Source: an uncultured Nitrospirales bacterium
GTDB lineage: Bacteria; Hydrogenedentota; Hydrogenedentia; Hydrogenedentales; CAILVY01
NCBI GenBank assembly: GCA_964559065.1
Contig: CAZLII010000001.1
Location: 1-27,168, forward strand
DNA length: 27,168 nt
Reading direction: 5' to 3'
In this document: positions 1,821 through 20,553 of the stretch, in pieces
How the letters are laid out: each line of letters begins with the position of its first letter
Position numbering within the stretch: the first letter of the stretch is position 1
Position numbers and translations under genes: made by a program
The notes under the pieces: generated by a model
The model's database searches: none
The model's input: only the letters and a program-made list of their open reading frames with translations
What the model was told of the DNA's origin: nothing

Positions 1821-3692
1821 TCAACCCTTCCATTCTCCACGGGCCAGCAAAGATTTGATGCGATCCAACAGCCGGTCCTCTACGGCGGCATATCGGACAA
1901 GGCCCTGTTTGTCAAGCAACACAATATGCGGGATGCTTCGTATGTGGTATTTTGAGAAGGTGATTGAGGGTTCAGCATCGAGTCCCACCGGAAATTCGAT
2001 GTTCATGCGGCGGATAAACGTGGAAACCTCGTCGGGATCAGCGGCGTCATCATGGATGCCGAGAAAAACCAGTTCCGGATTCCCCAGAAAGGCAGCATGT
2101 ATGACGCGGGTTTCCTCGATGCGATTGACGCCGTCCGGGCTGTCATCGAATCCGCCCCAGAATAACAACAGCACGATTTTGCCCTGCATGTCGGCGAGGG
2201 AAAGGGGTGTGGAATTGAACCAGTGTGCGCATTCGATGTCCGGGGCCGGCTGGTTCACCAGCCCGGCGGCTTCGGCGCTTTGCGGCGGCTCCGGGAAAGG
2301 TTCTGGTTTGTAATCACGCAGGCGGAGCCGCAACGGCCGATTTCTTTTCAAATCTACGGTGAATTCCCGGCTTAGGAATTCTGTGGGGTGTTCTGCGACA
2401 AAGCCTATCTTGTCCGTATCAGGCGGGTAGGTCAATTGGATGCCGAAACGTCCGTCCTCATCGCTGAGCGTCCACAGCGGATGGGGCAAATTTCGGGAAG
2501 CGATAACGACGCGGGCTGCAGGTCTGCCGTCCGGCATGGAGAGCGTGCCGGTGATTTGCGGCAGGGGCAGCAGGCGCACGGCGTCGAGGCGGGCGTGTCG
2601 GGTCTCCCCCATATTGACAGGGATTTCCGGCAGGGCATCTGTCATGTATCCGGGCGGGGCGATAATGCGGAGGATTCCCTGGGGCGATGGGGCCAGGAGC
2701 GCAAACCGGCCTTCGGCGTCGGAGTGTACGGCTGCGGCTGGTTGGCCCTGTGTGGAATACTCGACCCACACCCCCGGGGCTGGAGATTGATCATCGAGCA
2801 GGATGCGCCCTTCGATGCGATGAGGACGGATCATATCAAGGTTAAGAATATTGTCCTCCTTTTCTCGTGAAACCAGGACGGATTTCGGTTCGGGGGAGGC
2901 GTATTCGGGATGGCGCGCCACGAGATAGTACTCGCCATCGGGCAGATAAACCGAGTAAAAGCCTTCGGGATCAGATATCGTTTCCGAGCAGACCTGGCGC
3001 CCGCCCGCGCCGGCGATCAGCACGGTGATGTGTGCGTTCGCAATGGGCGTCTCGTCGTTCATGATGCGGCCGCCCAGGCGGACGCCGGACTGCAGGATGA
3101 TGTCCTGGCGTTTGCCGCCGACGGGCAGGTAGGCGACACTGGTGTCGGCGTAACGGTAATGAGCGATCAACAGTTGCACGAAGGCGTTCTTGGGCAGAAA
3201 GGGTACGGCGATGATGCCGTTGTCATCCGCGCGCAGACGGGGAAAACCGTGGTCGAGGAGGCTGTCCACGGAAACGCGAAATGCGTCGCGCACCAACATG
3301 AACTTGATGCGCGCGCCGGGCACGGGGAACAAGTTCTGGTTGATCACGCGGAACGACAGTTCCTGGGATTCTTCCAAGACGATGCGCATGTCGGCGTCAT
3401 TGACAAGAAATGCGCTGAATCCGCCGATGGCCAGTCCTTCCTTGTAGGCGACCACTTCGCACGCGCCCACGGGAGTATTTTCAAACAGGAACGCGCCCTC
3501 TTCCCCACTCCGGGTTTTCCGGACCTCCGTTTCGGTGCGGAGCCAGACATCCGCACCTGAGACGGGCGCATCCTGCGTATCCACCAAGATGCCCCGGAGA
3601 CTCAGGGCATGCGCACTGAATACGGCACATGCGACAAGCATTGCAATGGGTGCAACGCGCCAAAATGCTGCGATGGAATGCGGGCACATCAT
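1821..3692 (-). CDS. Exported protein with about 5 carboxypeptidase-regulatory-like (CarboxypepD_reg) beta-sandwich repeats and a C-terminal TlpA/redoxin-like domain lacking CxxC (623 aa)
   Basis: Signal peptide (...MLVACAVFSAHA); repeats GILVDTQDAPVSGADV, GRIMNDETPIANAHI, GRILLDDQSPAPGVWV, GTLSMPDGRPAARVVI; C-terminus APDIE..WFNS.PLSLADMQGKIVLLLFW...YHIRSIPHIVLLDKQGLVRY. Confidence 0.8.
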   Translation of the reverse strand: MMCPHSIAAFWRVAPIAMLVACAVFSAHALSLRGILVDTQDAPVSGADVWLRTETEVRKTRSGEEGAFLFENTPVGACEVVAYKEGLAIGGFSAFLVNDADMRIVLEESQELSFRVINQNLFPVPGARIKFMLVRDAFRVSVDSLLDHGFPRLRADDNGIIAVPFLPKNAFVQLLIAHYRYADTSVAYLPVGGKRQDIILQSGVRLGGRIMNDETPIANAHITVLIAGAGGRQVCSETISDPEGFYSVYLPDGEYYLVARHPEYASPEPKSVLVSREKEDNILNLDMIRPHRIEGRILLDDQSPAPGVWVEYSTQGQPAAAVHSDAEGRFALLAPSPQGILRIIAPPGYMTDALPEIPVNMGETRHARLDAVRLLPLPQITGTLSMPDGRPAARVVIASRNLPHPLWTLSDEDGRFGIQLTYPPDTDKIGFVAEHPTEFLSREFTVDLKRNRPLRLRLRDYKPEPFPEPPQSAEAAGLVNQPAPDIECAHWFNSTPLSLADMQGKIVLLLFWGGFDDSPDGVNRIEETRVIHAAFLGNPELVFLGIHDDAADPDEVSTFIRRMNIEFPVGLDAEPSITFSKYHIRSIPHIVLLDKQGLVRYAAVEDRLLDRIKSLLARGEWKG

Positions 3693-5713
3693 GGCATGGT
3701 TTCAGAATGGAGTTTTCGCAGCGCGATCAGGGGAGGCAGACCGATGGTCTCCAGGACCGCGCGACCGGAGGCGTCCAAAAGAAACGTGGTCGCGGCATTG
3801 GGCGGGACGCCGTTGAACACGGGGATCGGCGTCTCCTGCGGCGCAAAATGGCCGTTAATCACCAGCGCGATTTGAAGATTCGGATTGCCGAGGATGTCAG
3901 ACATGACACCCAAGCCTTCCAGAACAATTTCCGCCTGTTCCTCGTCGCAATAGACAACCATGGCGGGCCGATTCTCTGATGCGCGCCTGTCAACAGGCGG
4001 GCCGCCGACCTGGGGCAGGTCCCGCCAGCGCAGCGGTTTTCCCGCGAGACTGGATGCGCTCTTGCCGTCACGCAGCACGACATTGCCGACATCCTGCGCC
4101 TCGCCCGGTGCGGGATTCAAAATCATGGATTCCGTGGATGTGTTGTCGCTGGCGATGGCCACACAGCGCTGGGGCGCGCCGGGAACAATGGCATCCCATG
4201 AAAAATGGCCGTCCTTTTCCGTCAGCCGCTGCCACAACAGCAGATCATGGTCAATCAGTTCGCCGGGGAAAATGCCGCCGACCAAGAGGCCCTCCAGCCC
4301 GCGCCCGCGCGCATTGACCACGCGCCCGCGGACGCTGCCGAGCCGCAACAATTGCACCCGCGCGCCCTGCACGTCATCCAGATGCAGGGCAAACAGCGCG
4401 CCCAGCGGCTCGCGCGGGTCTTCCACCATCCCGATGATGCGGCGGTCTTCGGGCAGATTCGCGACACGGATTTCGACCAGCCCCATCGCGTCGGCAACCC
4501 GCCAGCCGAATTGGCGCGGGCGCAAGAGCGTGATAACGGCGCCCGGACGCGGCGTGTCGCCATCCTCATCGAGAACATAGAGCATGTACGTGGGGATGGG
4601 ACGCAGCCACATGCCGGGCAGTTCCATTTCGGCGCCGCCGGCCACGTGAAAGCGTGTCGCGGGGTCGGTGGGCGGCAAGTAACCCGGCGCGGATTCAAGG
4701 CGTATGAGACTCTCACCCTCGGCGATGGTCGCGCGAAACGCGCCGGTAGGCCCTGTGCGCAGGAGCGCCGCCTTGGACCCGTTGCTCTCAATTTCCAGAC
4801 GCGCGCCCTGGATGGGCGCACCGCTGACGGCGTCACGCACGACGCCATGAACCACGCCTGTGGCGGCGACGGTCAAGCGCAGCGGCGCCACTTCGCGGGC
4901 GGCGGTGATTTCGAGGCGTTCCCAGCCTGGGCTGAGGCGGCCGATGCCCGCCGCCTGATAGAGGTACTCGCCCGGCTTCAGTCGGACCATGAACGTCCCC
5001 TGATAGTCGGTGGTGGCGATGACGGTGTCGTGGGGCGGTTGCGTGCTGCGGAAAAGAATCGAAGCGCCGGTCACCGGCGACTTGCCGTCGCGGGAAAGCG
5101 CATTGCCGTTTACAAGGACGCCGGGGTCCATTGTAATGCGCAGGTTGCTCTCCCCCACGCTGACCTCGGAGATTGCCTCCTGTGCGTATTGGGGATGCCC
5201 CGCTTTGATCGCCACTTTTGCGCCACGCGGCAGGTTGGGGATGGTGAATTGGCCGCGATCGTTGCTCACCGGCTCTTCATATCCAAAGGCCGTCAACTTG
5301 GCCAGCGGAATACCGACCTTGCTGTCGTCGAGAACAGCGATGCGGGTAATCCGCGCCCCTTCCAGGGCCGCGCCCTTGTGGTTGGTGATACGCCCGGTGA
5401 TGCTGTCGGCGGGCCGCAGCACGATGGCGACGTTGAGAATCTCATCGGCCACCGCGACATTCAGGTGTGTGCCGCCGAAACCGTGGCCCGGCGCGATGGC
5501 GAAGATCCCGACGCCGTCTGCCGGTACGTTGTCAAACCGGAATGCGCCGTCCGCAGTCGGGATGGCCTCGCGCAGCGCGCCGCCGATGCCTGGTTCCATG
5601 AAGACGCGGGACCCCGCAATCGGCTGGCCGGAGGCGTCGGTGACACGCCCGGCAATGACGCTCATTCCCACGCAAAGAAACGACATCGCGCTCATCAACG
5701 CCGCGCTCATCAT
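3689..5713 (-). CDS. Exported protein with about 5 CarboxypepD_reg-like repeats and a degenerate thioredoxin-like C-terminus (674 aa)
   Basis: RBS AGAGGAG upstream; repeats GRVTDASGQPIAGSRV, GRITNHKGAALEGARI, GVVRDAVSGAPIQGARL, GRVVNARGRGLEGLLV; C-terminal TTFLLDASGRAV. Overlaps the next gene by 4 nt (ATGA). Confidence 0.8.
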   Translation of the reverse strand: MMSAALMSAMSFLCVGMSVIAGRVTDASGQPIAGSRVFMEPGIGGALREAIPTADGAFRFDNVPADGVGIFAIAPGHGFGGTHLNVAVADEILNVAIVLRPADSITGRITNHKGAALEGARITRIAVLDDSKVGIPLAKLTAFGYEEPVSNDRGQFTIPNLPRGAKVAIKAGHPQYAQEAISEVSVGESNLRITMDPGVLVNGNALSRDGKSPVTGASILFRSTQPPHDTVIATTDYQGTFMVRLKPGEYLYQAAGIGRLSPGWERLEITAAREVAPLRLTVAATGVVHGVVRDAVSGAPIQGARLEIESNGSKAALLRTGPTGAFRATIAEGESLIRLESAPGYLPPTDPATRFHVAGGAEMELPGMWLRPIPTYMLYVLDEDGDTPRPGAVITLLRPRQFGWRVADAMGLVEIRVANLPEDRRIIGMVEDPREPLGALFALHLDDVQGARVQLLRLGSVRGRVVNARGRGLEGLLVGGIFPGELIDHDLLLWQRLTEKDGHFSWDAIVPGAPQRCVAIASDNTSTESMILNPAPGEAQDVGNVVLRDGKSASSLAGKPLRWRDLPQVGGPPVDRRASENRPAMVVYCDEEQAEIVLEGLGVMSDILGNPNLQIALVINGHFAPQETPIPVFNGVPPNAATTFLLDASGRAVLETIGLPPLIALRKLHSETMP

Positions 5714-11254: not shown

Positions 11255-12337
11255 ATGCCGCAGGATTCGATGGAGCAGGATGCATTGCGGCCCTGTCCGA
11301 TATGCCGTACACCTATTAGCGTGCTGGCGGTACGGTGTCGGCATTGCGGCGCGGAAGTGGGCCGCCCGCGCAAAGAAGCGGAGACCCTCACGATTCGCGA
11401 CCTTGGGGGGGAATCGGAAACGACGTATACAGTCTCGGGTAATGTGCTGGATGCCTTGGAGATTTTCCGGGCGGAGGAACTTTCCGCACAAGAGCAACAG
11501 CGGCGCGCCCGTGAGGCCGGTCATTCATCGTGGTTTCGTCGTCGTCAACCGGAAGAGGAAATCAAGGACAACCGGTCCGCGTCCAATTTGCCGCAATTGG
11601 ATGCCAAGCACCGGGACCTGGCGATGCTGGGCGCGGAATCGCAATCCACCAGCAGGCCGAGGCCTGCGCCCTCGGCGCGGTTGGAATTTGTCCGACGGTG
11701 TCTCATAGGTGGGGGCGTCATCATCGGGCTTCTTGTGCTCTATTTTGTGGGGGATTTTGCCTGGAAACGTGTTTCGGCGTATATGAACCGGTCGGGCATG
11801 TCGGACGAGTTTATGTACGTGAACCGCGCCCTGCAATGGCTGGAAGAGGGGCGTCCAGCCATTGAGGCGCTGGAAGAGGCCCTGGAGGCGCTCAAGTTCA
11901 ATAATACCCCTGAGAACCGCCGGATCGCGGATGAAGTGCGGGAGCGGTTTGTCGCAGAGATAGAAGACCTGCTCACCGAGTATCCCTGGCGTCGAAACAG
12001 CCTCGACCGCGCTTCCGCGCTGGTAAATCGGGCCGCGCAGAAAGACTCGCACAAAAGCATCCGCGAAATGCTGGATAGCGTCCAGGCGGAGGTGGCGGCT
12101 TTCAAACTGGTGCTCATGTCGGTTGATGCGCGGGAAGGCACGGCCACTTTCCGCCTGCATGATCCGAATTTCCCCCTGACGGAACAGACGGTTCGTGAAG
12201 GCGACTATGTCCAGGATCGTTTTCTGGTGAAGCGGATCACGGCCTCGAACGTCCGCCTCGAGGATGCAAAAGTGCAGACGCCGCGGGGATTCCGGACGGT
12301 TCTGGCGCGCCTGAGAACGCCTGTTGTGGGTGAGTGA
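11255..12337 (+). CDS. Zinc-ribbon, single-TM protein with a C-terminal GspC/PilP-like beta domain (360 aa)
   Basis: CPICRTPISVLAVRCRHCG (CxxC-x11-CxxC); TM LIGGGVIIGLLVLYFVG; C-terminus LVLMSVDAREGTATFRL...EQTVREGDYVQDRFLVKRITASNVRL. Confidence 0.78.
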   Translation: MPQDSMEQDALRPCPICRTPISVLAVRCRHCGAEVGRPRKEAETLTIRDLGGESETTYTVSGNVLDALEIFRAEELSAQEQQRRAREAGHSSWFRRRQPEEEIKDNRSASNLPQLDAKHRDLAMLGAESQSTSRPRPAPSARLEFVRRCLIGGGVIIGLLVLYFVGDFAWKRVSAYMNRSGMSDEFMYVNRALQWLEEGRPAIEALEEALEALKFNNTPENRRIADEVRERFVAEIEDLLTEYPWRRNSLDRASALVNRAAQKDSHKSIREMLDSVQAEVAAFKLVLMSVDAREGTATFRLHDPNFPLTEQTVREGDYVQDRFLVKRITASNVRLEDAKVQTPRGFRTVLARLRTPVVGE

Positions 12338-12380
12338 ATGCCTGGTGGCCGGGCGATGTTCCTGATTGATGCGGCGATTA

Positions 12381-12389
12381 TGCTATGAT
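12381..12389 (+). promoter_or_regulatory. Extended -10 element TGcTATGAT
   Basis: Lies in the 123-nt gap upstream of the lipoprotein gene; no convincing -35. Confidence 0.4.
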
Positions 12390-12460
12390 AAAGCGTGTTT
12401 GCCGTGCTTCAGGATTCTCGCGTCCCATTTCACATCAGATCATTGTAAGGAACACGCATT

Positions 12461-13075
12461 ATGCCGCATAAAGTGGCCATAGGGTTGTTGATTGTTTTGA
12501 CGGGGGTTATGGGGATGTCCTGCGCCGCCAAGCGGGAGAAAAGCCCTGCGCTTGACCTGTCGTCTCCGCAGTCCGCAGCGGAGTACGAAGCGCAACTGCG
12601 CGAGGTGGTTAACCGACATGTGGCGCACGCCGGCCGTGAGGAAGATATGACACGGGCGCCGCTCATCCGGCGCAGGCCGTATTACCTCAAGGAGTTTGTC
12701 CTTTATCCGTCGGACGCATCCGAGGCGCAGGTCACGTTGCAGCACCGGGAATCGCGCACCCGGCCCTACATTGCAGATGTGAAAGTGGAAAAGCGCAGGT
12801 ACTATACGGAGCCGCAGAAGAAGCGAAAGGCGGCGCAGCAGGATTTGAAATTTTACCGCGACACAGGCCACGAAACACTGACCTATGAGTACCGCGACAA
12901 CCGCTGGTGGCGGGTGGGCAGCCTCTTTGTTCCGGAGAAATCGGAGGAATATATCAACGGGGAGTGGTTGCCCCGCCAGGAAGAGGTCAGGGTTTTTGTG
13001 GAACCGGAAGATCGCGGCGGCTTTTGGCTCACCCGCAAGTTCAGGCAATGGTTCGGCAGGGACAAGGAAGAGTGA
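12461..13075 (+). CDS. Hypothetical lipoprotein (204 aa)
   Basis: AAGGA RBS; signal MPHKVAIGLLIVLTGVMGMS-C; polar, beta-rich mature region. Confidence 0.78.
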   Translation: MPHKVAIGLLIVLTGVMGMSCAAKREKSPALDLSSPQSAAEYEAQLREVVNRHVAHAGREEDMTRAPLIRRRPYYLKEFVLYPSDASEAQVTLQHRESRTRPYIADVKVEKRRYYTEPQKKRKAAQQDLKFYRDTGHETLTYEYRDNRWWRVGSLFVPEKSEEYINGEWLPRQEEVRVFVEPEDRGGFWLTRKFRQWFGRDKEE

Positions 13076-13104
13076 ACTCCACGACGCAGGGATTCGGGAG
13101 CGGG

Positions 13105-14403
13105 ATGGAGCAGCAAGAAACGTTGAATATCAAGACTGTCTGGATGGAAGCGGCCGTGATAGTTGTGGCTGTTGCGTTGGCCGCCTTGGGCGTGCGCCAT
13201 GTGATTGCGGGAGAGACGGTCAACAGCCGTATGGCCACGGTGTGGAGCCTGACCAAGCATGGCACGTGGTGCCTGGATCGCCCGGTGGACGAACCGCGAA
13301 ATCCGTTTGAAGCAATTACGGTGGACAAGGTTGCCGTCCGCGGGCGTCTGATCTCCAGCAAACCACCGATGATCCCACTGATTATGACGGGGGAATATCT
13401 GCTTCTACGGGGCCTTTTCGGGTGGGACTTGGAAAATCGGGATCATCTCAAGTCCATCCTGCAGGTTATGAACCTGACGCTGGTGGTCTTTGCGTACGCC
13501 ATCGCCCTGATTTTCTTTGCAAAGATATTGCGCCTTTTCGTCGAGAACCCATGGCGGCGATTGTTCTGGGTGGCGGCGATGGCCTTCTGCACACAGGTTT
13601 TTGGTTATTCCTCACAACTCAACAACCATGTACCGGCTGTCGGCATGCTCATGCCGATGCTGTATTTCGGCATCGGGCTGTCTTCCGGGAAATTGACGGC
13701 AAGGCCCTGGCGCTTCTTTATGTTCGGCCTGTGCGGGGCGCTCGTCTTCACCTTTGACTTGCCCATCACCATTTTCGTCGCATTGACGGGTCTCTATTTG
13801 CTGTATTGCCATCCCCGGAACACCCTGATTTGGACCACCCTGGGCGTCGCGGGACCGTTGTTGGTTCATTTCGCCATCATGACGGCAGTGACGGGAAGCC
13901 CCCTGCCGGTGCAACTAAACAAAGACTGTTATTTGTTCGAGTCTTCGATGTGGCGCAATCCCATGGGACTGGACAGCCTGAACGAGCCGAAACTGGTTTA
14001 CCTGTTCCATTTCACCTTCGGACGCCACGGGGTTTTTCTACTCTTCCCCATTCTCATCACCGGACTTCTGGGAGGCGTTCTGGCGTTGCTGCGTCGCGAT
14101 GTTCCCGGGCGCGGTTATGTACTGGGCGGCGCTATGGGCTTTCTGTTGATAAGTCTGTATTATTTGCTTAATACCCATGGATACGGCGGGGAAGCCTACG
14201 GGTTCCGGTGGTACATTGGGGCGATGCCCGTATTGCTTCTCATGGGCGCGTCGTTTCATGAGCGTGTGCACTCCCGATGGCTGTGGGGCGTGTTATTCGC
14301 TCTGGCGGTGGCGTCCGCCTATTCCGCCTGGGAATGCCATCAGAACCCGTGGGGCGCCGATCTCGAATGGACCGCGCGCCTGTTGTTCGGTCCAAGTCAT
14401 TAA
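13105..14403 (+). CDS. Polytopic membrane protein, GT-C-fold glycosyltransferase-like (432 aa)
   Basis: Start reassigned to ATG 13105 (GGGAG RBS; MEQQETL). First TM is followed by a loop SRMATVWSL..HGT...TVDK....GRLISSKPP, then about 10 TM segments including GYSSQLNNH and GFRWYIGAMP. Confidence 0.7.
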   Translation: MEQQETLNIKTVWMEAAVIVVAVALAALGVRHVIAGETVNSRMATVWSLTKHGTWCLDRPVDEPRNPFEAITVDKVAVRGRLISSKPPMIPLIMTGEYLLLRGLFGWDLENRDHLKSILQVMNLTLVVFAYAIALIFFAKILRLFVENPWRRLFWVAAMAFCTQVFGYSSQLNNHVPAVGMLMPMLYFGIGLSSGKLTARPWRFFMFGLCGALVFTFDLPITIFVALTGLYLLYCHPRNTLIWTTLGVAGPLLVHFAIMTAVTGSPLPVQLNKDCYLFESSMWRNPMGLDSLNEPKLVYLFHFTFGRHGVFLLFPILITGLLGGVLALLRRDVPGRGYVLGGAMGFLLISLYYLLNTHGYGGEAYGFRWYIGAMPVLLLMGASFHERVHSRWLWGVLFALAVASAYSAWECHQNPWGADLEWTARLLFGPSH

Positions 14404-15609
14404 TCAGGAAACGTCATTATTGCCGAGATACCGGATTGCCAGCGTGGCGAGCAGTTCGACAGCCAGGGGGATGGCGGCGTCATTGAAGTCAAAGCGCGGG
14501 TGGTGCAGGGAGAAGGGATTGCTGTTTTCCTTGTCGGTATTTCCCAGGAAGACATATGCGCCGGGGACTTTTTCGAGGTAGAAGGCGAAATCTTCGGAGG
14601 CCATGATGGGATGCTGCAATGTCACCAGAGATTCTTTGCCGAAGCAATCGGCAATGACGGTCCGGGCAAAGGAAGCCATTGCGGGGTCGTTACAGAGCGG
14701 CGGATAGCCGTCTTCATGAAGGGTGAAATGCGCTTGGGCGCGAAATCCTGCCGCAATCTGCGCCGCGATGCGCGGGATGGCTTCGATGATATGGTCGCGC
14801 ACGCGCGGTGACAAGGCGCGGAACCCGCCTTCCAGGCGGGCTTGCGCGGGAGTGACATTGGCGGCGGACCCCGCGTCCGCGCGCGTGACGGCAATCACCG
14901 CCGGTTCCCAAGGGCTTAACTCCCGGCTGACAATGCTCTGCAGCGCGGTGATAATGTGGGCTGCAACGAGGATCGGGTCCACGGTGTTGGCGGGGTCCGC
15001 CGCATGGCCTCCCCGTCCGATGATGTCTATGTGAAAACCGTCCATGCCGGCCATCACCGGCCCTTCACCGACAGCGGCCGCCCCCAAAGGCAGTGCGGGC
15101 CAGGCGTGCAGGGCAAATGCGGCGGAAACGCCGTCCAATACCCCCTCCTCCACGATTCTGCGGCCGCCCCCCGCCTGTTCCTCTGCGGGCTGGAATATCA
15201 GGCGCGCAGCGCCGCGCATGCGATGGCGATTGTTGGATAGTGTTTTCGCCGCGCCGCACAGACAGGCGATATGCCCGTCGTGCCCGCAGGCGTGCATGCG
15301 CCCGGGCGTCCTTGATGCGTAGGGCAGACCGGTTTCTTCCTGGATTTCCAGCGCATCCATGTCGGCGCGAAGCGCGACGATTTTTTGTTCAGATGGTTTT
15401 TCACCTTCGATGTCAGCGACAATCCCCGTGCCGCCGGCATGGCCTCTGGTAAACGGGATGTCGTTTTCTTCCAGGAACTGCGCGATCCGGTCTGAAGTCC
15501 AGTGTTCTTCAAAGCGGATTTCCGGGTGTTGATGGAGTTCATGGCGCAGCGCGACGATTTCAGGAAGAAGGGCGGCGGTCGCTTTTCGGATGGGGTTGTG
15601 CGTCACCAT
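14404..15609 (-). CDS. M20D family amidohydrolase (hippurate hydrolase/aminoacylase-like, 401 aa)
   Basis: RHELHQHPE, ALRADMDAL, MHACGHDGH, IFQPAEE, GRGGHAA.P, SEDFAFY, LHHPRFDF. Confidence 0.92.
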   Translation of the reverse strand: MVTHNPIRKATAALLPEIVALRHELHQHPEIRFEEHWTSDRIAQFLEENDIPFTRGHAGGTGIVADIEGEKPSEQKIVALRADMDALEIQEETGLPYASRTPGRMHACGHDGHIACLCGAAKTLSNNRHRMRGAARLIFQPAEEQAGGGRRIVEEGVLDGVSAAFALHAWPALPLGAAAVGEGPVMAGMDGFHIDIIGRGGHAADPANTVDPILVAAHIITALQSIVSRELSPWEPAVIAVTRADAGSAANVTPAQARLEGGFRALSPRVRDHIIEAIPRIAAQIAAGFRAQAHFTLHEDGYPPLCNDPAMASFARTVIADCFGKESLVTLQHPIMASEDFAFYLEKVPGAYVFLGNTDKENSNPFSLHHPRFDFNDAAIPLAVELLATLAIRYLGNNDVS

Positions 15610-15660: not shown

Positions 15661-18600
15661 TCAGATTCGGATGCGGGTGCCCGGAAACGCGGTGATACTG
15701 AACTCGATATTGAAATCCGTGCCGCGCTCGCGATTTCGGATGCGCAGGGCGGTCTCCCAGCAATGGAGTGAACGCCGAATTTCGTAGGTCTGGATTCTCA
15801 AGTCGCCCCGGCTGATATCAACGATATGCTCAAACCACAGCCCCCAGTGATCGCCCAGTTTGCAGCCCAAACTGTAGAGAATATCGCGGTTGTACACCCG
15901 GCTTGCGGTTTCGGTATAGATGAACCCCATGCGCCCGTTGAAATAGCCGCCCATGGGGATATCGTCATAGTAGAGATGGGTCAGCACGCGGTTGAAATCG
16001 CCCAGCATGGCCTGGTGCTCGAGTTCCGGATTCAATCGCCAGGGCTGCCGGAAGATCAGTTCATATGCCTGAAGGAATGTTTCGCTCTGATAGATGGGGA
16101 CTCGCGGCAGAATGTCCCGATTGACCTTGAAGCGCTCTGCCGCCAGTTGAAATCCCCACCAAGGCCGCGGTCTGAAGTCAATTTCCGCTTCATAGTTTTC
16201 AGACGCGCTGGTCTCATTCCAGAAGTCGTTTCCCTGATACAGGGTGAAGCGTCCCACTTGCCAGGCCTCGTTGGTATAAGCGTCGCGGCCGTAGAGCAAA
16301 TTGTCGAGTTTGGATTCGATGCGGGCGTGTCCATAGACGCTGTCCCATGCATCGTATCGGGGCGATTTTTCGATGCCAAGCGTTGACTTGGGCCGATAGG
16401 ACATGGTCACCGAGGGGACGACCAGGTGCTTGAATTCGGAGAATCCGAGGATGCCGGGATAGGTTTTGTGGAAGCGGCTTTGGGCCGTCACGCCAAGTTT
16501 GGTGGACAGCCGGGCTTGGGCGGTATCGTCATGGTCTTCAGTCAGATAAAAAGTGGCTTCGTTTTCCCAGTATGGCGTAAGGGTGAATCCTTCCACCGGC
16601 GCCCAGGCATAGGAAAGGCGTGCGATGTTGGCTTGGCGCCCGCCGGTATCGCCGTTCTGTTCGCGGTCGTTGTAGCCGACGAGGGCGTCATAGGTGAAAT
16701 AGAGATTGGGAGCGATCCGTCGTTCGATGAGGTGGAAGGTGGCTTCGGGCAGGTATTCCGTTTCATAGACCCAGCGATGCATGTTCAATCGCGCGGTGGA
16801 GGTGGCGATGTAGGAGGGTTGCCGATACGTGACGTTGACAAAGTCCCTTGGGGTGGTCCGATGCCGGTAGAGTTCCCTGTGGAAATCCCTGTAGACGTCT
16901 CGGTCCCGCCACATTTCGAGTTGTCCGCGCACCACCAGGTCTTCCGAATACTCATAGCGGTGATACCATTCGCCGTAGCCCCGGCTCTCTGTGGTCATCA
17001 GGCCGTGCGCTTCGCCTTTGCTTCGGAAGAACGGCGAGGCGGGATTGTCCATGAAATCATAGTTCACATCCAATCCGAATCCGACGCCTTCCTTCTCGGT
17101 GGGATAGAGCCGCGGCCCCATGGTGATATCGCGGTTCACTTCAAACTGCATGCCGAGATTGGCGTAGTATCCCAGTTCTGCGGAGCGGCCGCTGCGGAAG
17201 TCAATATTCCAGGGGTTTTCCTCCTGCATATCTGCGCGCCAGCGCGGGAGATATAGCGGTGTGGGCATTTTTCCGAATTGAAGGCGGGCATGCGAACCGC
17301 GAAGCACCTGATTTTCGTCCGCGCTGAAGGATTTCATGCGCAGCCGATAGTGGGGGTTTTCATGGTCGCATGTTGTTATCCAGACCTCTTCGCCGAATAC
17401 TTGTTGGGGTCCCCGGATATGCAGTTTTTCGGCGTGAAAATAATAGAGACCGGCGCGGCCCCTGACGTCTGTCAGTTCCCCCGTTTGATCGGCGAAGTCG
17501 TAGTGCACCTCGCTTGCTGTCATCTCGCGCGCAGGCTCGACGATATGCACATCCTTTGCATCGAGTTTGCCGACGCTGAGCCGCTGGCGGGCGCGCTCCT
17601 GCTCGTCCAGTTCGGCGGCCAACGGTGAGACCTCTTCGGGCGCCGTCTCCGGCGCTTCTTCCTCTTCCACCGGCAACTGGTAACGCATTTCGGATGCGGT
17701 AAGGCGGGAGGATTCCTGCTCCACCTGCACGTTTCCTTTGACGAATATTTCGCCGGTATCCTCGGAATGGGTGAGAGAATCGGCGCGGAATAGCATGTTG
17801 CCCATGCGCAAGCGGACATTGTTTTCGAGATGCAGCACGCCGGTCTGTAAGTCTCGGGTCATTTTTTCCGCCTCGACATCACGGAGCGGCTCTGTCCAGT
17901 CCGGAGGTTCAAATCCGGCCTCAAGCGAGCCGAATTCCGTCGGTTGTCGCAGGGCGTCTGTTATTGTGCGCTTGGCGACTTGGCGCGTAGGCGCGGCGGT
18001 CGGCTTTGCCACATATCTTTCGGAGGTCCGGAGCGGGTAGCGCTTGAAGATGCGCGCAAAGAGCGATTTTTTTCTGGGAACTTCGATTTCCGGCGATTCC
18101 GGGGCTTCCGGCATCAATTCCGGCGGCGGCTGTGCGATGGCTGTCGGCGGCGTTTCGGTCAACGGAAGCAGACGCCATTCACGGTCGCGCAAACTCAAGG
18201 CCAGCAGTGCGCCGGGAAATACCGAGATTCGTGTGGGCGTGAAATCCAACGGGATGCGCTCACGTTCGGCCAAACTGGAATCCAGACGCACCAGGGTGCG
18301 TTCAGACAAGACAAACACTTCATCGCGGTAAACGGCCATGGTCTCGACCGGGATTTCTTTTGCGCGGATGATACGCCGCGCAGCGGCGTCAACGAGCGAC
18401 AGTTGCGCGGCGCATCCCACGACAAAGCGGTCACCGGACACGGCGCCAAGGTGCTGGGGAATATCAGGCAGGGCAACCATGCTGCGCTCCGCCAGACGAT
18501 CGAGTCGAATGAGGGTCAACTGAGGTTCGATGCGGCCAATCACGCCCAGATAGCGGGCGGTCGTCACCGCGCCGGAGGGAAAACCGGGCGCCTTTTCCAG

Positions 18601-19065
18601 GGTGGTGGTAAGGACAGGCGGCCCTGGATCGAGAATTGTGACGCTTTCGGAAAAGGTGTTGGTGATGACGAAGCGCCCATCGGACATTGCCGCGAGCGTG
18701 GCGGGGCTTTCGCCGACAGGTATGGTTGCGAGGAGTGTTTCATCGGGCAGATGGATCAGGGAAACCGTATTGTCCAGACGGTTGACGCATGCCAGCGTGT
18801 GGCCGTCGGGCGCCAACGCCAAAGCCACAGGCCCCCGCCCCACGGGAATGGTGCTGATGCGTGATTGATTGTCGGCGTCAAAGACCCAAATCTCGTCGCG
18901 ATTGTTCACCGCAAAATAAAGCCGGTTCTGGTCGGGGAGCAGCAGGGCGTCGCGAAACTGCGCCTCCGCGTCATACGCATCAAATGGTGATGCCGAGGCG
19001 GACAGCGTCCACAGAACAGCCATGAGTCCGTATCCGATTGTCATATTGGACATAAGCACACCCAC
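15661..19065 (-). CDS. lptD: LptD-like LPS-assembly outer-membrane barrel with an extra N-terminal YVTN/YncE-type beta-propeller (1134 aa)
   Basis: Signal peptide; YVTN-like repeats (STIPVGRGPVALALAPDG..LACVNRLDNTVSLI; ATIPVGESP); Pro-rich linker; OstA/LptA-like jellyroll (LHLENNVRL...FRADSL...GEIFVKGNVQV; ITTCD..NPHYRL); aromatic-rich barrel ending RRSLHCWE...FNIEFSI. Confidence 0.78.
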   Translation of the reverse strand: MGVLMSNMTIGYGLMAVLWTLSASASPFDAYDAEAQFRDALLLPDQNRLYFAVNNRDEIWVFDADNQSRISTIPVGRGPVALALAPDGHTLACVNRLDNTVSLIHLPDETLLATIPVGESPATLAAMSDGRFVITNTFSESVTILDPGPPVLTTTLEKAPGFPSGAVTTARYLGVIGRIEPQLTLIRLDRLAERSMVALPDIPQHLGAVSGDRFVVGCAAQLSLVDAAARRIIRAKEIPVETMAVYRDEVFVLSERTLVRLDSSLAERERIPLDFTPTRISVFPGALLALSLRDREWRLLPLTETPPTAIAQPPPELMPEAPESPEIEVPRKKSLFARIFKRYPLRTSERYVAKPTAAPTRQVAKRTITDALRQPTEFGSLEAGFEPPDWTEPLRDVEAEKMTRDLQTGVLHLENNVRLRMGNMLFRADSLTHSEDTGEIFVKGNVQVEQESSRLTASEMRYQLPVEEEEAPETAPEEVSPLAAELDEQERARQRLSVGKLDAKDVHIVEPAREMTASEVHYDFADQTGELTDVRGRAGLYYFHAEKLHIRGPQQVFGEEVWITTCDHENPHYRLRMKSFSADENQVLRGSHARLQFGKMPTPLYLPRWRADMQEENPWNIDFRSGRSAELGYYANLGMQFEVNRDITMGPRLYPTEKEGVGFGLDVNYDFMDNPASPFFRSKGEAHGLMTTESRGYGEWYHRYEYSEDLVVRGQLEMWRDRDVYRDFHRELYRHRTTPRDFVNVTYRQPSYIATSTARLNMHRWVYETEYLPEATFHLIERRIAPNLYFTYDALVGYNDREQNGDTGGRQANIARLSYAWAPVEGFTLTPYWENEATFYLTEDHDDTAQARLSTKLGVTAQSRFHKTYPGILGFSEFKHLVVPSVTMSYRPKSTLGIEKSPRYDAWDSVYGHARIESKLDNLLYGRDAYTNEAWQVGRFTLYQGNDFWNETSASENYEAEIDFRPRPWWGFQLAAERFKVNRDILPRVPIYQSETFLQAYELIFRQPWRLNPELEHQAMLGDFNRVLTHLYYDDIPMGGYFNGRMGFIYTETASRVYNRDILYSLGCKLGDHWGLWFEHIVDISRGDLRIQTYEIRRSLHCWETALRIRNRERGTDFNIEFSITAFPGTRIRI

Positions 19066-19133: not shown

Positions 19134-19430
19134 TCAGCGCCCGGGGATGATGAACCAGAATGCGGCGACACGCTTGGACGGGCGTTCATCAGAACGCTGT
19201 ATTTCTGAGGGACGATGAATTTCCGGCTGTCTTTCTTGGTCCGCCTCAGATTCCGGCGCGGGGACGGTCGCCTGCGGCACAGGCGCGGATGGCGGCGCAT
19301 CGGTCGAGACATCGTCCGCAGCACTTACGGGCGGGGGCAGTTCACGTGTCTGCACCATTGTTTCCCCCTGCTCCGCCCATGCAACGCCTGCAATCAGCAC
19401 GAACAAGGCTGCCGGAAATATTTTCAACAT
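19134..19430 (-). CDS. Small secreted Pro/acidic-rich protein with a hydrophobic C-terminal motif (98 aa)
   Basis: Start reassigned to ATG 19430, overlapping the pfkB stop (ATGTTGA); signal MLKIFPAALFVLIAGVAWA; C-terminus KRVAAFWFIIPGR. Confidence 0.62.
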   Translation of the reverse strand: MLKIFPAALFVLIAGVAWAEQGETMVQTRELPPPVSAADDVSTDAPPSAPVPQATVPAPESEADQERQPEIHRPSEIQRSDERPSKRVAAFWFIIPGR

Positions 19431-20362
19431 GTTTTGCCCTCCATGAAACACACCGTGTCCTCCAACGATCGAATTGCCTCTGCGCCGCCCATCCGCTGCA
19501 CGGTCAAGCCGCCGACCGCGTTGGCGAGTTGGCCGCAGCGTTTCAAATCCCAACCGTTCAAATGGGCATACAGGAATCCGCCGCACGCTGCATCGCCTGC
19601 GCCCGTAGTGTCCACCACCTGCACCCGATGCGCGGGCATGTGGTGCTGCTCGCTGGCATTCTTGACGAACAATCCATCTGCGCCCATTTTTACGATGACG
19701 GTCTCCACACCGTAACTCCGGTAGAAATCCGCGATGGATTCCGGTTCTTGCCGCCCCGTGTAATGACGCGCTTCTTCAAGACTGGAGAACACAATATCCA
19801 AGTGGGGCAACGATGGTTCAATCAATGGAAGCCAGACGCCTTTGCCGTCGTAACAGGTGTCCATCGAGGTTTTTACACCGAGTTGATGCGCTTTTTCAAA
19901 TATGCGCCCCATTGGTTCTCCGTCCAGCATGGGCGTGATTGCCGGCCCCCCCCAATGCAGGATGCGCGCTCCGGATATCACCTCAAAATCCAGGTCGGCT
20001 TCGCACGTCTGTGCGGTGGTGCCCAAGTGATGCAGAAAAGTCCGCTCGCCGTCCGCGCTGATCAGCACAACAGTCGCCGACGAATGACAGTCATCCACCC
20101 GCTTCACCCCATCGGTATTCACGCCGGCCGCATGCAATGCGCCCATGATAAAATCGCCGAATCCGTCGTTGCCCAGCCGCCCCACGAAGGCGGCGCTGCC
20201 GCCCAGTTGCCGCATCACCACGGCGGTAACCGCTGCAAGACCGCCGAGGTGCATCTCGAGTTGCGGCACCAGGGAAAGCGTTCCCCGGGAGGGCAACTCC
20301 TCCACCGGGCGCACCATGACATCCGCGCATACCACGCCTACCGTGACCACATCCACCGACAT
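19424..20362 (-). CDS. PfkB/ribokinase-family carbohydrate kinase (312 aa)
   Basis: Start reassigned to ATG 20362 (AAAGGA RBS; MSVDVVTVG). GG.AA.TAV..RQLG, FVGRLGND.FGD, VIVKMGADG and VDTTGAGDA motifs. Confidence 0.9.
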   Translation of the reverse strand: MSVDVVTVGVVCADVMVRPVEELPSRGTLSLVPQLEMHLGGLAAVTAVVMRQLGGSAAFVGRLGNDGFGDFIMGALHAAGVNTDGVKRVDDCHSSATVVLISADGERTFLHHLGTTAQTCEADLDFEVISGARILHWGGPAITPMLDGEPMGRIFEKAHQLGVKTSMDTCYDGKGVWLPLIEPSLPHLDIVFSSLEEARHYTGRQEPESIADFYRSYGVETVIVKMGADGLFVKNASEQHHMPAHRVQVVDTTGAGDAACGGFLYAHLNGWDLKRCGQLANAVGGLTVQRMGGAEAIRSLEDTVCFMEGKTC

Positions 20363-20553
20363 GAATCCGTCCTTTGAGCCAGCCCATTTGTAACCAGGAA
20401 TCAACGCCCGCAGTATAGCAAGTGCATTTTCGTGTGCGCAAAGGAAGCAGGCGGGTTCGTCCGCAAGGGTTGATCCCCTTGTGCGGGACTGGCGTTGTGC
20501 GCCGGGCATGCCGTATCATGGCGCGTCTTTGTCCAGCGGAAGGAAACGCAGCC

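Follow-up and report, generated by a model that had tools for sequence, protein, structure and literature searches.

A Hydrogenedentota orthologue of the outer-membrane protein LptD carrying an N-terminal seven-bladed YVTN beta-propeller

The 27,168-nucleotide stretch of DNA analysed here (the window; contig CAZLII010000001.1) comes from an uncultured sludge bacterium of the phylum Hydrogenedentota. It carries at 15661..19065, on the reverse strand (as are all features of the window described below unless stated otherwise), a gene for the outer-membrane lipopolysaccharide (LPS) insertion protein LptD, with an additional propeller domain at its N-terminus. As described in the first-pass annotation of this DNA, which was made from the sequence alone, the gene is a single open reading frame (ORF) of 1134 amino acids (aa) with a signal peptide. 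It begins with GTG, and the longest ORFs in the other frames across this interval are at most 306 aa. The ATG at 19053 is probably the likelier start, giving a protein of 1130 aa, because the start of the orthologue P0001 (90% identity) corresponds to Met5. The first 25 residues (18991..19065) read as a signal peptide (MSNMTIGYGLMAVLWTLSASA followed by SP), with a helix at aa 6-20 in the AlphaFold2 (AF2) model, and cleavage of this predicted Sec signal peptide would fall between ASA and SP (…LWTLSASA, then SP). An exact look-up of the protein from either start codon returned no record.

The signal peptide is followed by a seven-bladed YVTN beta-propeller (18163..18957, aa 37-301). Sequence models see YVTN repeats at aa 44-146 alone, where TIGR02276 matches in two stretches with 37.7 bits (cutoff 27.85), and a sequence search of the PDB retrieved an archaeal YVTN propeller, 1l0q, with an E-value of 4e-27. 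In the AF2 model aa 37-301 form approximately 27 strands arranged in seven blades, with a predicted local distance difference test score (pLDDT) of approximately 88. Foldseek aligned this propeller to 1l0q (E 5e-14, root-mean-square deviation 2.8 Å over 260 columns), the first match after the LptD chains. The N-terminal YVTN propeller of the earlier annotation is thus borne out by profile, structure database and model. Pfam and NCBIfam scans of the protein detected no carbohydrate-binding family.

The propeller is joined to the rest of the protein by a disordered, proline-rich linker (17950..18162, aa 302-372; AF2 pLDDT below 50, 17% proline), which across the family varies in length from 70 to approximately 200 residues. 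The linker contains the stretch PRKKSLFARIFKR (18040-18078, aa 330-342), which as a helix would be amphipathic (hydrophobic moment, muH, 0.62). Both the proline-rich character and the amphipathic stretch had been pointed out previously and both hold, yet the latter is restricted to close relatives, being kept solely in those of at least 77% identity, where it sits directly upstream of a conserved pre-jellyroll segment. This segment, of approximately 55 aa (17866..18042, aa 342-400), carries the family-wide motif R..P......RAP.PS..P...DA...P...G....GF..PDW..PLRD..AD and is common to family members with and without the propeller. Its GF.PPDW..PL portion aligns with residues 31-42 of Escherichia coli LptD, the very N-terminus of the mature protein; therefore everything before approximately aa 383 is extra relative to E. 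coli LptD.

The C-terminal two thirds of the protein comprise an OstA/LptA-type beta-jellyroll (17266..17886, aa 394-600) and an LptD beta-barrel of approximately 26 strands (15664..17265, aa 601-1134). The jellyroll is recognised by the Pfam LptD_N model (PF03968) at aa 428-535 (E 1e-6, 29.4 bits against a gathering score of 20.4), which matches 13 of 16 family members. The Pfam barrel model PF04453 does not match the query itself even at E ≤ 1; PF04453 and PF19838 match six of the 16 members, with a best value of 2.6e-11. A PDB sequence search with the single query returned propellers alone, while a family profile reached LptA and LptD weakly (E 9e-4 to 0.39), so a comparison of folds was needed. 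An alignment of the query and 15 full-length homologues was used as input for AF2, and the resulting whole-protein model (mean pLDDT 73, predicted template modelling score (pTM) 0.44) has 26-27 long strands at aa 601-1134 as assigned by DSSP. When this model was compared with the PDB using Foldseek, the top 15 matches were all LptD chains of LptDE or LptDEM complexes (8h1s, 8h1r, 5iv9, 9kn3, 4q35, 7omm and others), with E-values of 4e-24 to 1e-18, target-normalised TM-scores of 0.5-0.62, approximately 800-880 aligned columns and 10-12% identity. A local hhalign comparison of a 56-sequence family profile with E. coli K-12 LptD (784 aa) gave an E-value of 1.5e-5 and a probability of 80%, and placed family positions 9-754 (window protein aa 383-1128) collinear with E. 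coli residues 31-762. These comparisons identify the protein as an LptD and dispose of the concern, raised in the first-pass annotation, that the barrel might not be of LptD type; the jellyroll and LptD-type barrel described there both stand. In addition, the NCBI pipeline labels one distant propeller-bearing member of the family LptD.

Outside the propeller only two cysteines are well conserved, Cys566 in the jellyroll (nucleotides 17368-17370; 16/16 sequences) and Cys1102 in the barrel (nucleotides 15760-15762; 14/15). In the hhalign alignment they correspond to E. coli C173 and C725, respectively, and C31 and C724 have no counterpart. In E. coli, C173-C725 is the interdomain disulfide that is sufficient for function, and the aligned cysteines predict a disulfide of the same type here. 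The transport core is therefore canonical, with a jellyroll, a barrel of approximately 26 strands and one such predicted interdomain disulfide. In E. coli, P231 and P246 in barrel strands beta1 and beta2 loosen the lateral gate. Where jellyroll and barrel meet, the family has two invariant prolines, P603 and P607; the hhalign register is of low confidence there and does not put them on P231 or P246. A disordered acidic insert lies inside the jellyroll (aa 469-487, nucleotides ~17605-17661), followed by a short helix at aa 488-496; it is found family-wide and recalls the insert in the N-terminal domain of Pseudomonas LptD. The protein ends in ...FPGTRIRI. The absence of a terminal aromatic residue had been remarked on as unusual, but this is no anomaly, because the last residue of the relatives is F in seven and I or L in eight of the family alignment, and the E. 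coli protein has Leu as its last residue (...YQNTL).

The fusion of propeller and LptD is widespread. Among 15 relatives retrieved from a large protein database (36-90% identity), two of which are labelled as Candidatus Hydrogenedentes metagenome-assembled genomes (MAGs), 13 are 1130-1217 aa long and include the propeller, even three whose best BLAST alignment spans approximately 70% of the query. P0013 (884 aa) has a different start and lacks the propeller, and P0015 (1070 aa) is an NCBI partial record with its C-terminus cut. When a single genome of each GTDB species was scanned with family-specific patterns, 61 loci were identified, each in a different genome. Almost all of the phylum labels available for them read Hydrogenedentota, and the remaining labels look like placeholders or mis-binning. 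Hidden Markov models (HMMs) of propeller, jellyroll and barrel were run on all six-frame ORFs of these loci. Approximately 30 of the 61 have all three domains within one ORF of 1113-1351 aa (long forms), while at 22, including that of Ca. Hydrogenedens terephthalaticus, the ORF is 850-972 aa long and encodes just the jellyroll and the barrel (short forms). Each short form is delimited upstream by a stop codon and begins with a signal peptide of its own. No separate propeller ORF was found with the HMM within 6 kb of any of the 61 loci, those with short forms included. In a profile-based search, 1.84 billion cluster representatives yielded approximately 60 clusters (at 50% identity) that match near full length, propeller included. 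Among more distant relatives, P0086 and P0090 have one propeller, and P0084 (1379 aa; locus L068, 6001-10140) has two tandem YVTN/YncE-like propellers, in each case preceding an LptD barrel.

The first-pass annotation had asked whether the fusion could be a misassembly, or a stop-codon loss, joining two genes that relatives encode separately. Independent Logan contigs from an activated-sludge run match the window at 100%, and one of them spans 17164-18247 without differences, from the final blade of the propeller across the linker and into the barrel. The same architecture in approximately 30 independent MAGs and approximately 60 protein clusters, together with this spanning contig, excludes an artefact, and no relative with a separate propeller gene was found. 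One locus could be cited in favour of an artefact: at L026 (3638-7248) the propeller is encoded in one frame and the jellyroll and barrel in another that overlaps it. This looks like a frameshift, caused by a sequencing error or belonging to a gene in the course of losing its propeller. Weighed against the rest, an artefactual origin of the fusion has a negligible probability.

Long and short forms occupy one and the same locus (PfkB kinase, small ORF, lptD), and they are thus orthologous rather than paralogous. In a neighbour-joining tree of the jellyroll-plus-barrel columns, short forms are scattered at several positions among long forms. The propeller was reconstructed as ancestral to the 49-member core family in 95 of 100 neighbour-joining bootstraps, with 5-7 state changes under Fitch parsimony. 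It is implausible that one and the same propeller was gained independently at an identical position; these changes are therefore losses, and the propeller is ancestral and was lost 5-7 times. Mean pairwise identity among 27 long forms is 31.5% for the propeller, 24% for the linker, 37.5% for the jellyroll and 51.4% for the barrel, so that by this measure of sequence divergence the propeller evolves faster than the barrel.

Comparison with known systems sets the core and the extension apart. The jellyroll and ~26-strand barrel are shared with the LptD proteins of LptDE and LptDEM complexes of Enterobacteriaceae, Neisseria and Pseudomonas (4q35, 5iv9, 8h1s, 9kn3, 7omm), and the E. coli protein is collinear over residues 31-762 and shares the cysteine pair. 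Relative to the solved LptD structures, the protein described here has approximately 380 extra N-terminal residues (propeller, linker and pre-jellyroll motif) and the acidic jellyroll insert, and it can form only one of the two disulfides of E. coli LptD. It also differs from the LptDE and LptDEM systems in having no recognisable LptE or LptM near lptD. For extra domains, the nearest precedent is found in spirochaetes, whose LptD homologues, including Borrelia burgdorferi BB0838, have an LptD fold and exceed 1000 aa; in the AlphaFold model of BB0838 a small four-helix domain precedes the jellyroll, to which a flexible linker connects it, the main addition in spirochaetes is a C-terminal extension with the barrel enlarged to 28-32 strands, and LptE is not detectable in Borrelia or Treponema (bioRxiv 10.1101/2022.12.21.521298). 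An extra N-terminal domain flexibly linked to the jellyroll is common to both groups, but here, in contrast to BB0838, this domain is a seven-bladed propeller and the barrel has the usual size.

The propeller itself has the same seven-bladed YVTN fold as the Methanosarcina surface-layer (S-layer) protein 1l0q and the YncE/PQQ-associated periplasmic propellers. Those are free-standing or S-layer modules, whereas the propeller here is fused to an outer-membrane barrel. A literature search found no YVTN/YncE propeller described as fused to an outer-membrane barrel, a full-text search for LptD together with beta-propeller or YVTN found no such fusion described, and a search on the envelope or LPS of Hydrogenedentes yielded nothing useful. 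LptD, an essential protein of most Gram-negative bacteria, is targeted by antibiotics as well as by phages, and its known structural diversity comes almost wholly from Proteobacteria plus a few spirochaetes. A phylum-wide lineage of propeller-bearing LptD proteins, with natural propeller-loss lineages within it, offers a comparative system for the study of accessory modules in translocon assembly or positioning.

The genes around lptD were annotated for possible partners; at each related locus approximately 6-10 kb of surrounding sequence was covered. No ORF in the window has a Pfam or NCBIfam match to LptA, LptC or LptE, in agreement with the earlier remark that none of these genes adjoins lptD. 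No second OstA-like ORF was found with the jellyroll HMM within ~6 kb of any of the 61 loci, and no Lpt genes are adjacent at the loci of the distant propeller-bearing relatives. E. coli lptD adjoins surA, whereas lptD here adjoins a gene for a PfkB-family sugar kinase (19424..20509), which lies immediately upstream of lptD in most loci, with both forms and across the phylum. Among the NCBIfam models it comes closest to iolC- or ribokinase-like ones, without reaching any cutoff. A role as the LPS heptose kinase HldA/RfaE is not supported by its scores (61 bits against a cutoff of 345, with generic sugar-kinase models scoring higher).

Between the kinase gene and lptD lies a small ORF of 98 aa (19134..19430), whose start overlaps the stop codon of the PfkB gene and whose product has a signal peptide, an ELPPP motif, a low-complexity region and the C-terminal sequence KRVAAFWFIIPGR. 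Small secreted proteins of this family, 64-149 aa long, are encoded at L001 (9676-9981), L004 (9697-9996), L068 (5509-5949) and approximately 30 other loci, with long and short forms alike; they share a C-terminal [RK][VI][AP][ATV]FW[FILVM]..P motif and an ATG that overlaps the kinase stop codon. They have no family match. Because this co-transcribed small protein is conserved and no LptE is recognisable, the partner set of LptD outside model organisms may differ from the known one, and we speculate that the small protein may partner LptD in a role resembling that of LptM. The order of kinase gene, small ORF and lptD is also kept at L068, where it is followed by a radical-SAM gene and then a GT9 heptosyltransferase gene; the latter, in second position after lptD, connects the locus weakly with synthesis of the LPS core.

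On the other side, 51 nucleotides downstream of lptD, lies a gene for an M20 amidohydrolase (14404..15609), a frequent neighbour. It is followed by a convergent cluster of three genes on the forward strand (11255-14403) that adjoins the lptD operon in 22 loci. The cluster encodes a Zn-ribbon/transmembrane protein of 360 aa (11255-12337), a lipoprotein of 204 aa (12461-13075) and a polytopic GT-C-like membrane protein of 432 aa (13105-14403) with a weak match to the LA_3751/LA_3752 putative glycosyltransferase family. The lipoprotein is syntenic in 22 loci, with both forms of LptD, and was considered as a candidate LptE. It has no Pfam or NCBIfam match even at E 10, including to the LptE family PF04390. 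Its AF2 model (pLDDT 78) is a helix-plus-curved-sheet cone of NTF2/SnoaL-like appearance, no LptE is among the top 50 PDB matches, and its best Foldseek matches are SnoaL/NTF2-like dehydratases with weak scores. It was rejected as an LptE on these grounds.

The interpretation that we favour, and consider moderately probable, is that the gene encodes a single-copy LptD orthologue with a dispensable, flexibly tethered docking module in the periplasm. The transport core looks ordinary, and LptD would receive LPS from the periplasmic Lpt bridge and insert it into the outer leaflet. A barrel with an even number of strands has both termini in the periplasm, where the jellyroll also lies; since the propeller precedes the jellyroll, the propeller and linker are expected to be periplasmic as well; display of the propeller on the cell surface is the rival to this placement. 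The propeller would then hang by the N-terminal edge of the jellyroll, the site at which LptA docks in E. coli, and could recruit or position an envelope partner, so aiding the assembly or placement of LptD, while carrying no lipid itself. We infer such an accessory role by analogy with BamB, a dispensable eight-bladed propeller lipoprotein of the BAM complex, and TolB, a six-bladed propeller of Tol-Pal, both of which are periplasmic docking platforms. The analogy is functional only, as BamB and TolB are separate polypeptides with other blade numbers and from other families, and their likeness to the present propeller is limited to the general propeller fold. Because the propeller is old in the phylum but was lost several times, it is probably an optional helper, and its repeated loss while the transporter was kept argues against any role essential to transport.

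Several points weigh against this interpretation. No propeller partner was identified, and the AF2 model predicts no interdomain contact; with a pTM of 0.44 it does not predict the relative placement of the domains. LPS is the assumed cargo, by homology. A second, canonical LptD may be encoded elsewhere in the genome, as the genome scan used family-specific patterns, and the trees were built by neighbour-joining only. Furthermore, retention of the propeller in approximately half of the lineages at ~31% identity points to selection, and the propeller may thus do more than help.

The earlier annotation had proposed that the propeller is a glycolipid or glycan sensor, or a scaffold that replaces a bridge component. 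Both ideas are weakened by approximately 22 propeller-less orthologues, the 5-7 losses and the faster evolution of the propeller. In the sensor version, the propeller would bind glycan or LPS and act as a cargo receptor that reads the sugar of the glycolipid before translocation. In the nearest propeller match outside the family, P0016, a PMT/GT-C glycosyltransferase is joined to a YVTN propeller, and the conserved PfkB kinase and GT-C-like membrane protein are sugar-related neighbours, both of which would suit a sensor. However, the transporter was kept each time the propeller was lost, no carbohydrate-binding family was detected, and the long floppy linker does not put the propeller on the transport path, so we regard a sensor as unlikely. 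As for the bridge, a proline-rich linker of 70-200 aa could span the periplasm, and it is attached at the jellyroll edge where E. coli LptA docks, so that linker and propeller might reach the inner membrane and replace LptA. Since the propeller offers no continuous hydrophobic groove, the short forms work without it and the linker is poorly conserved (24% identity), such a bridge is extremely unlikely.

The lack of a recognisable LptE near any of the 61 loci, where the sole syntenic lipoprotein is not LptE-like, raises the question of whether the propeller or the whole N-terminal extension replaces LptE as lumen plug and assembly chaperone, or offers BAM a cis-acting handle similar to BamB. 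The LptE-less spirochaetal LptD homologues also have extra domains (bioRxiv 10.1101/2022.12.21.521298). Yet the short-form orthologues would need a plug as well and have no propeller, AF2 docks no propeller onto the barrel, and LptE is poorly detectable by sequence and could be encoded elsewhere; a replacement of this kind seems quite improbable. We would give a similarly low probability to a broader scheme, an LptE-independent translocon in which the propeller, the RAP.PS...GF.PPDW segment and the small ...AAFWF..P protein jointly take over plugging, assembly and gate control from LptE and LptM, the propeller-less lineages relying on the small protein alone. Finally, the protein could export a cargo other than LPS, which the propeller would handle, as surface lipoproteins have been proposed as cargo of the Borrelia LptD homologue (bioRxiv 10.1101/2022.12.21.521298) and the PF04453 barrel model does not match the query itself. 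The jellyroll and the cysteine pair are conserved as in LPS-transporting LptD, the barrel of ~26 strands is not enlarged, and L068 has its heptosyltransferase gene close to lptD, which makes another cargo very unlikely.

Elsewhere in the window, two adjacent large proteins of CarboxypepD_reg-like repeats are encoded at 1821-5713 (reverse strand), one of which (1821-3692) ends in an AhpC/TSA thioredoxin-like domain.

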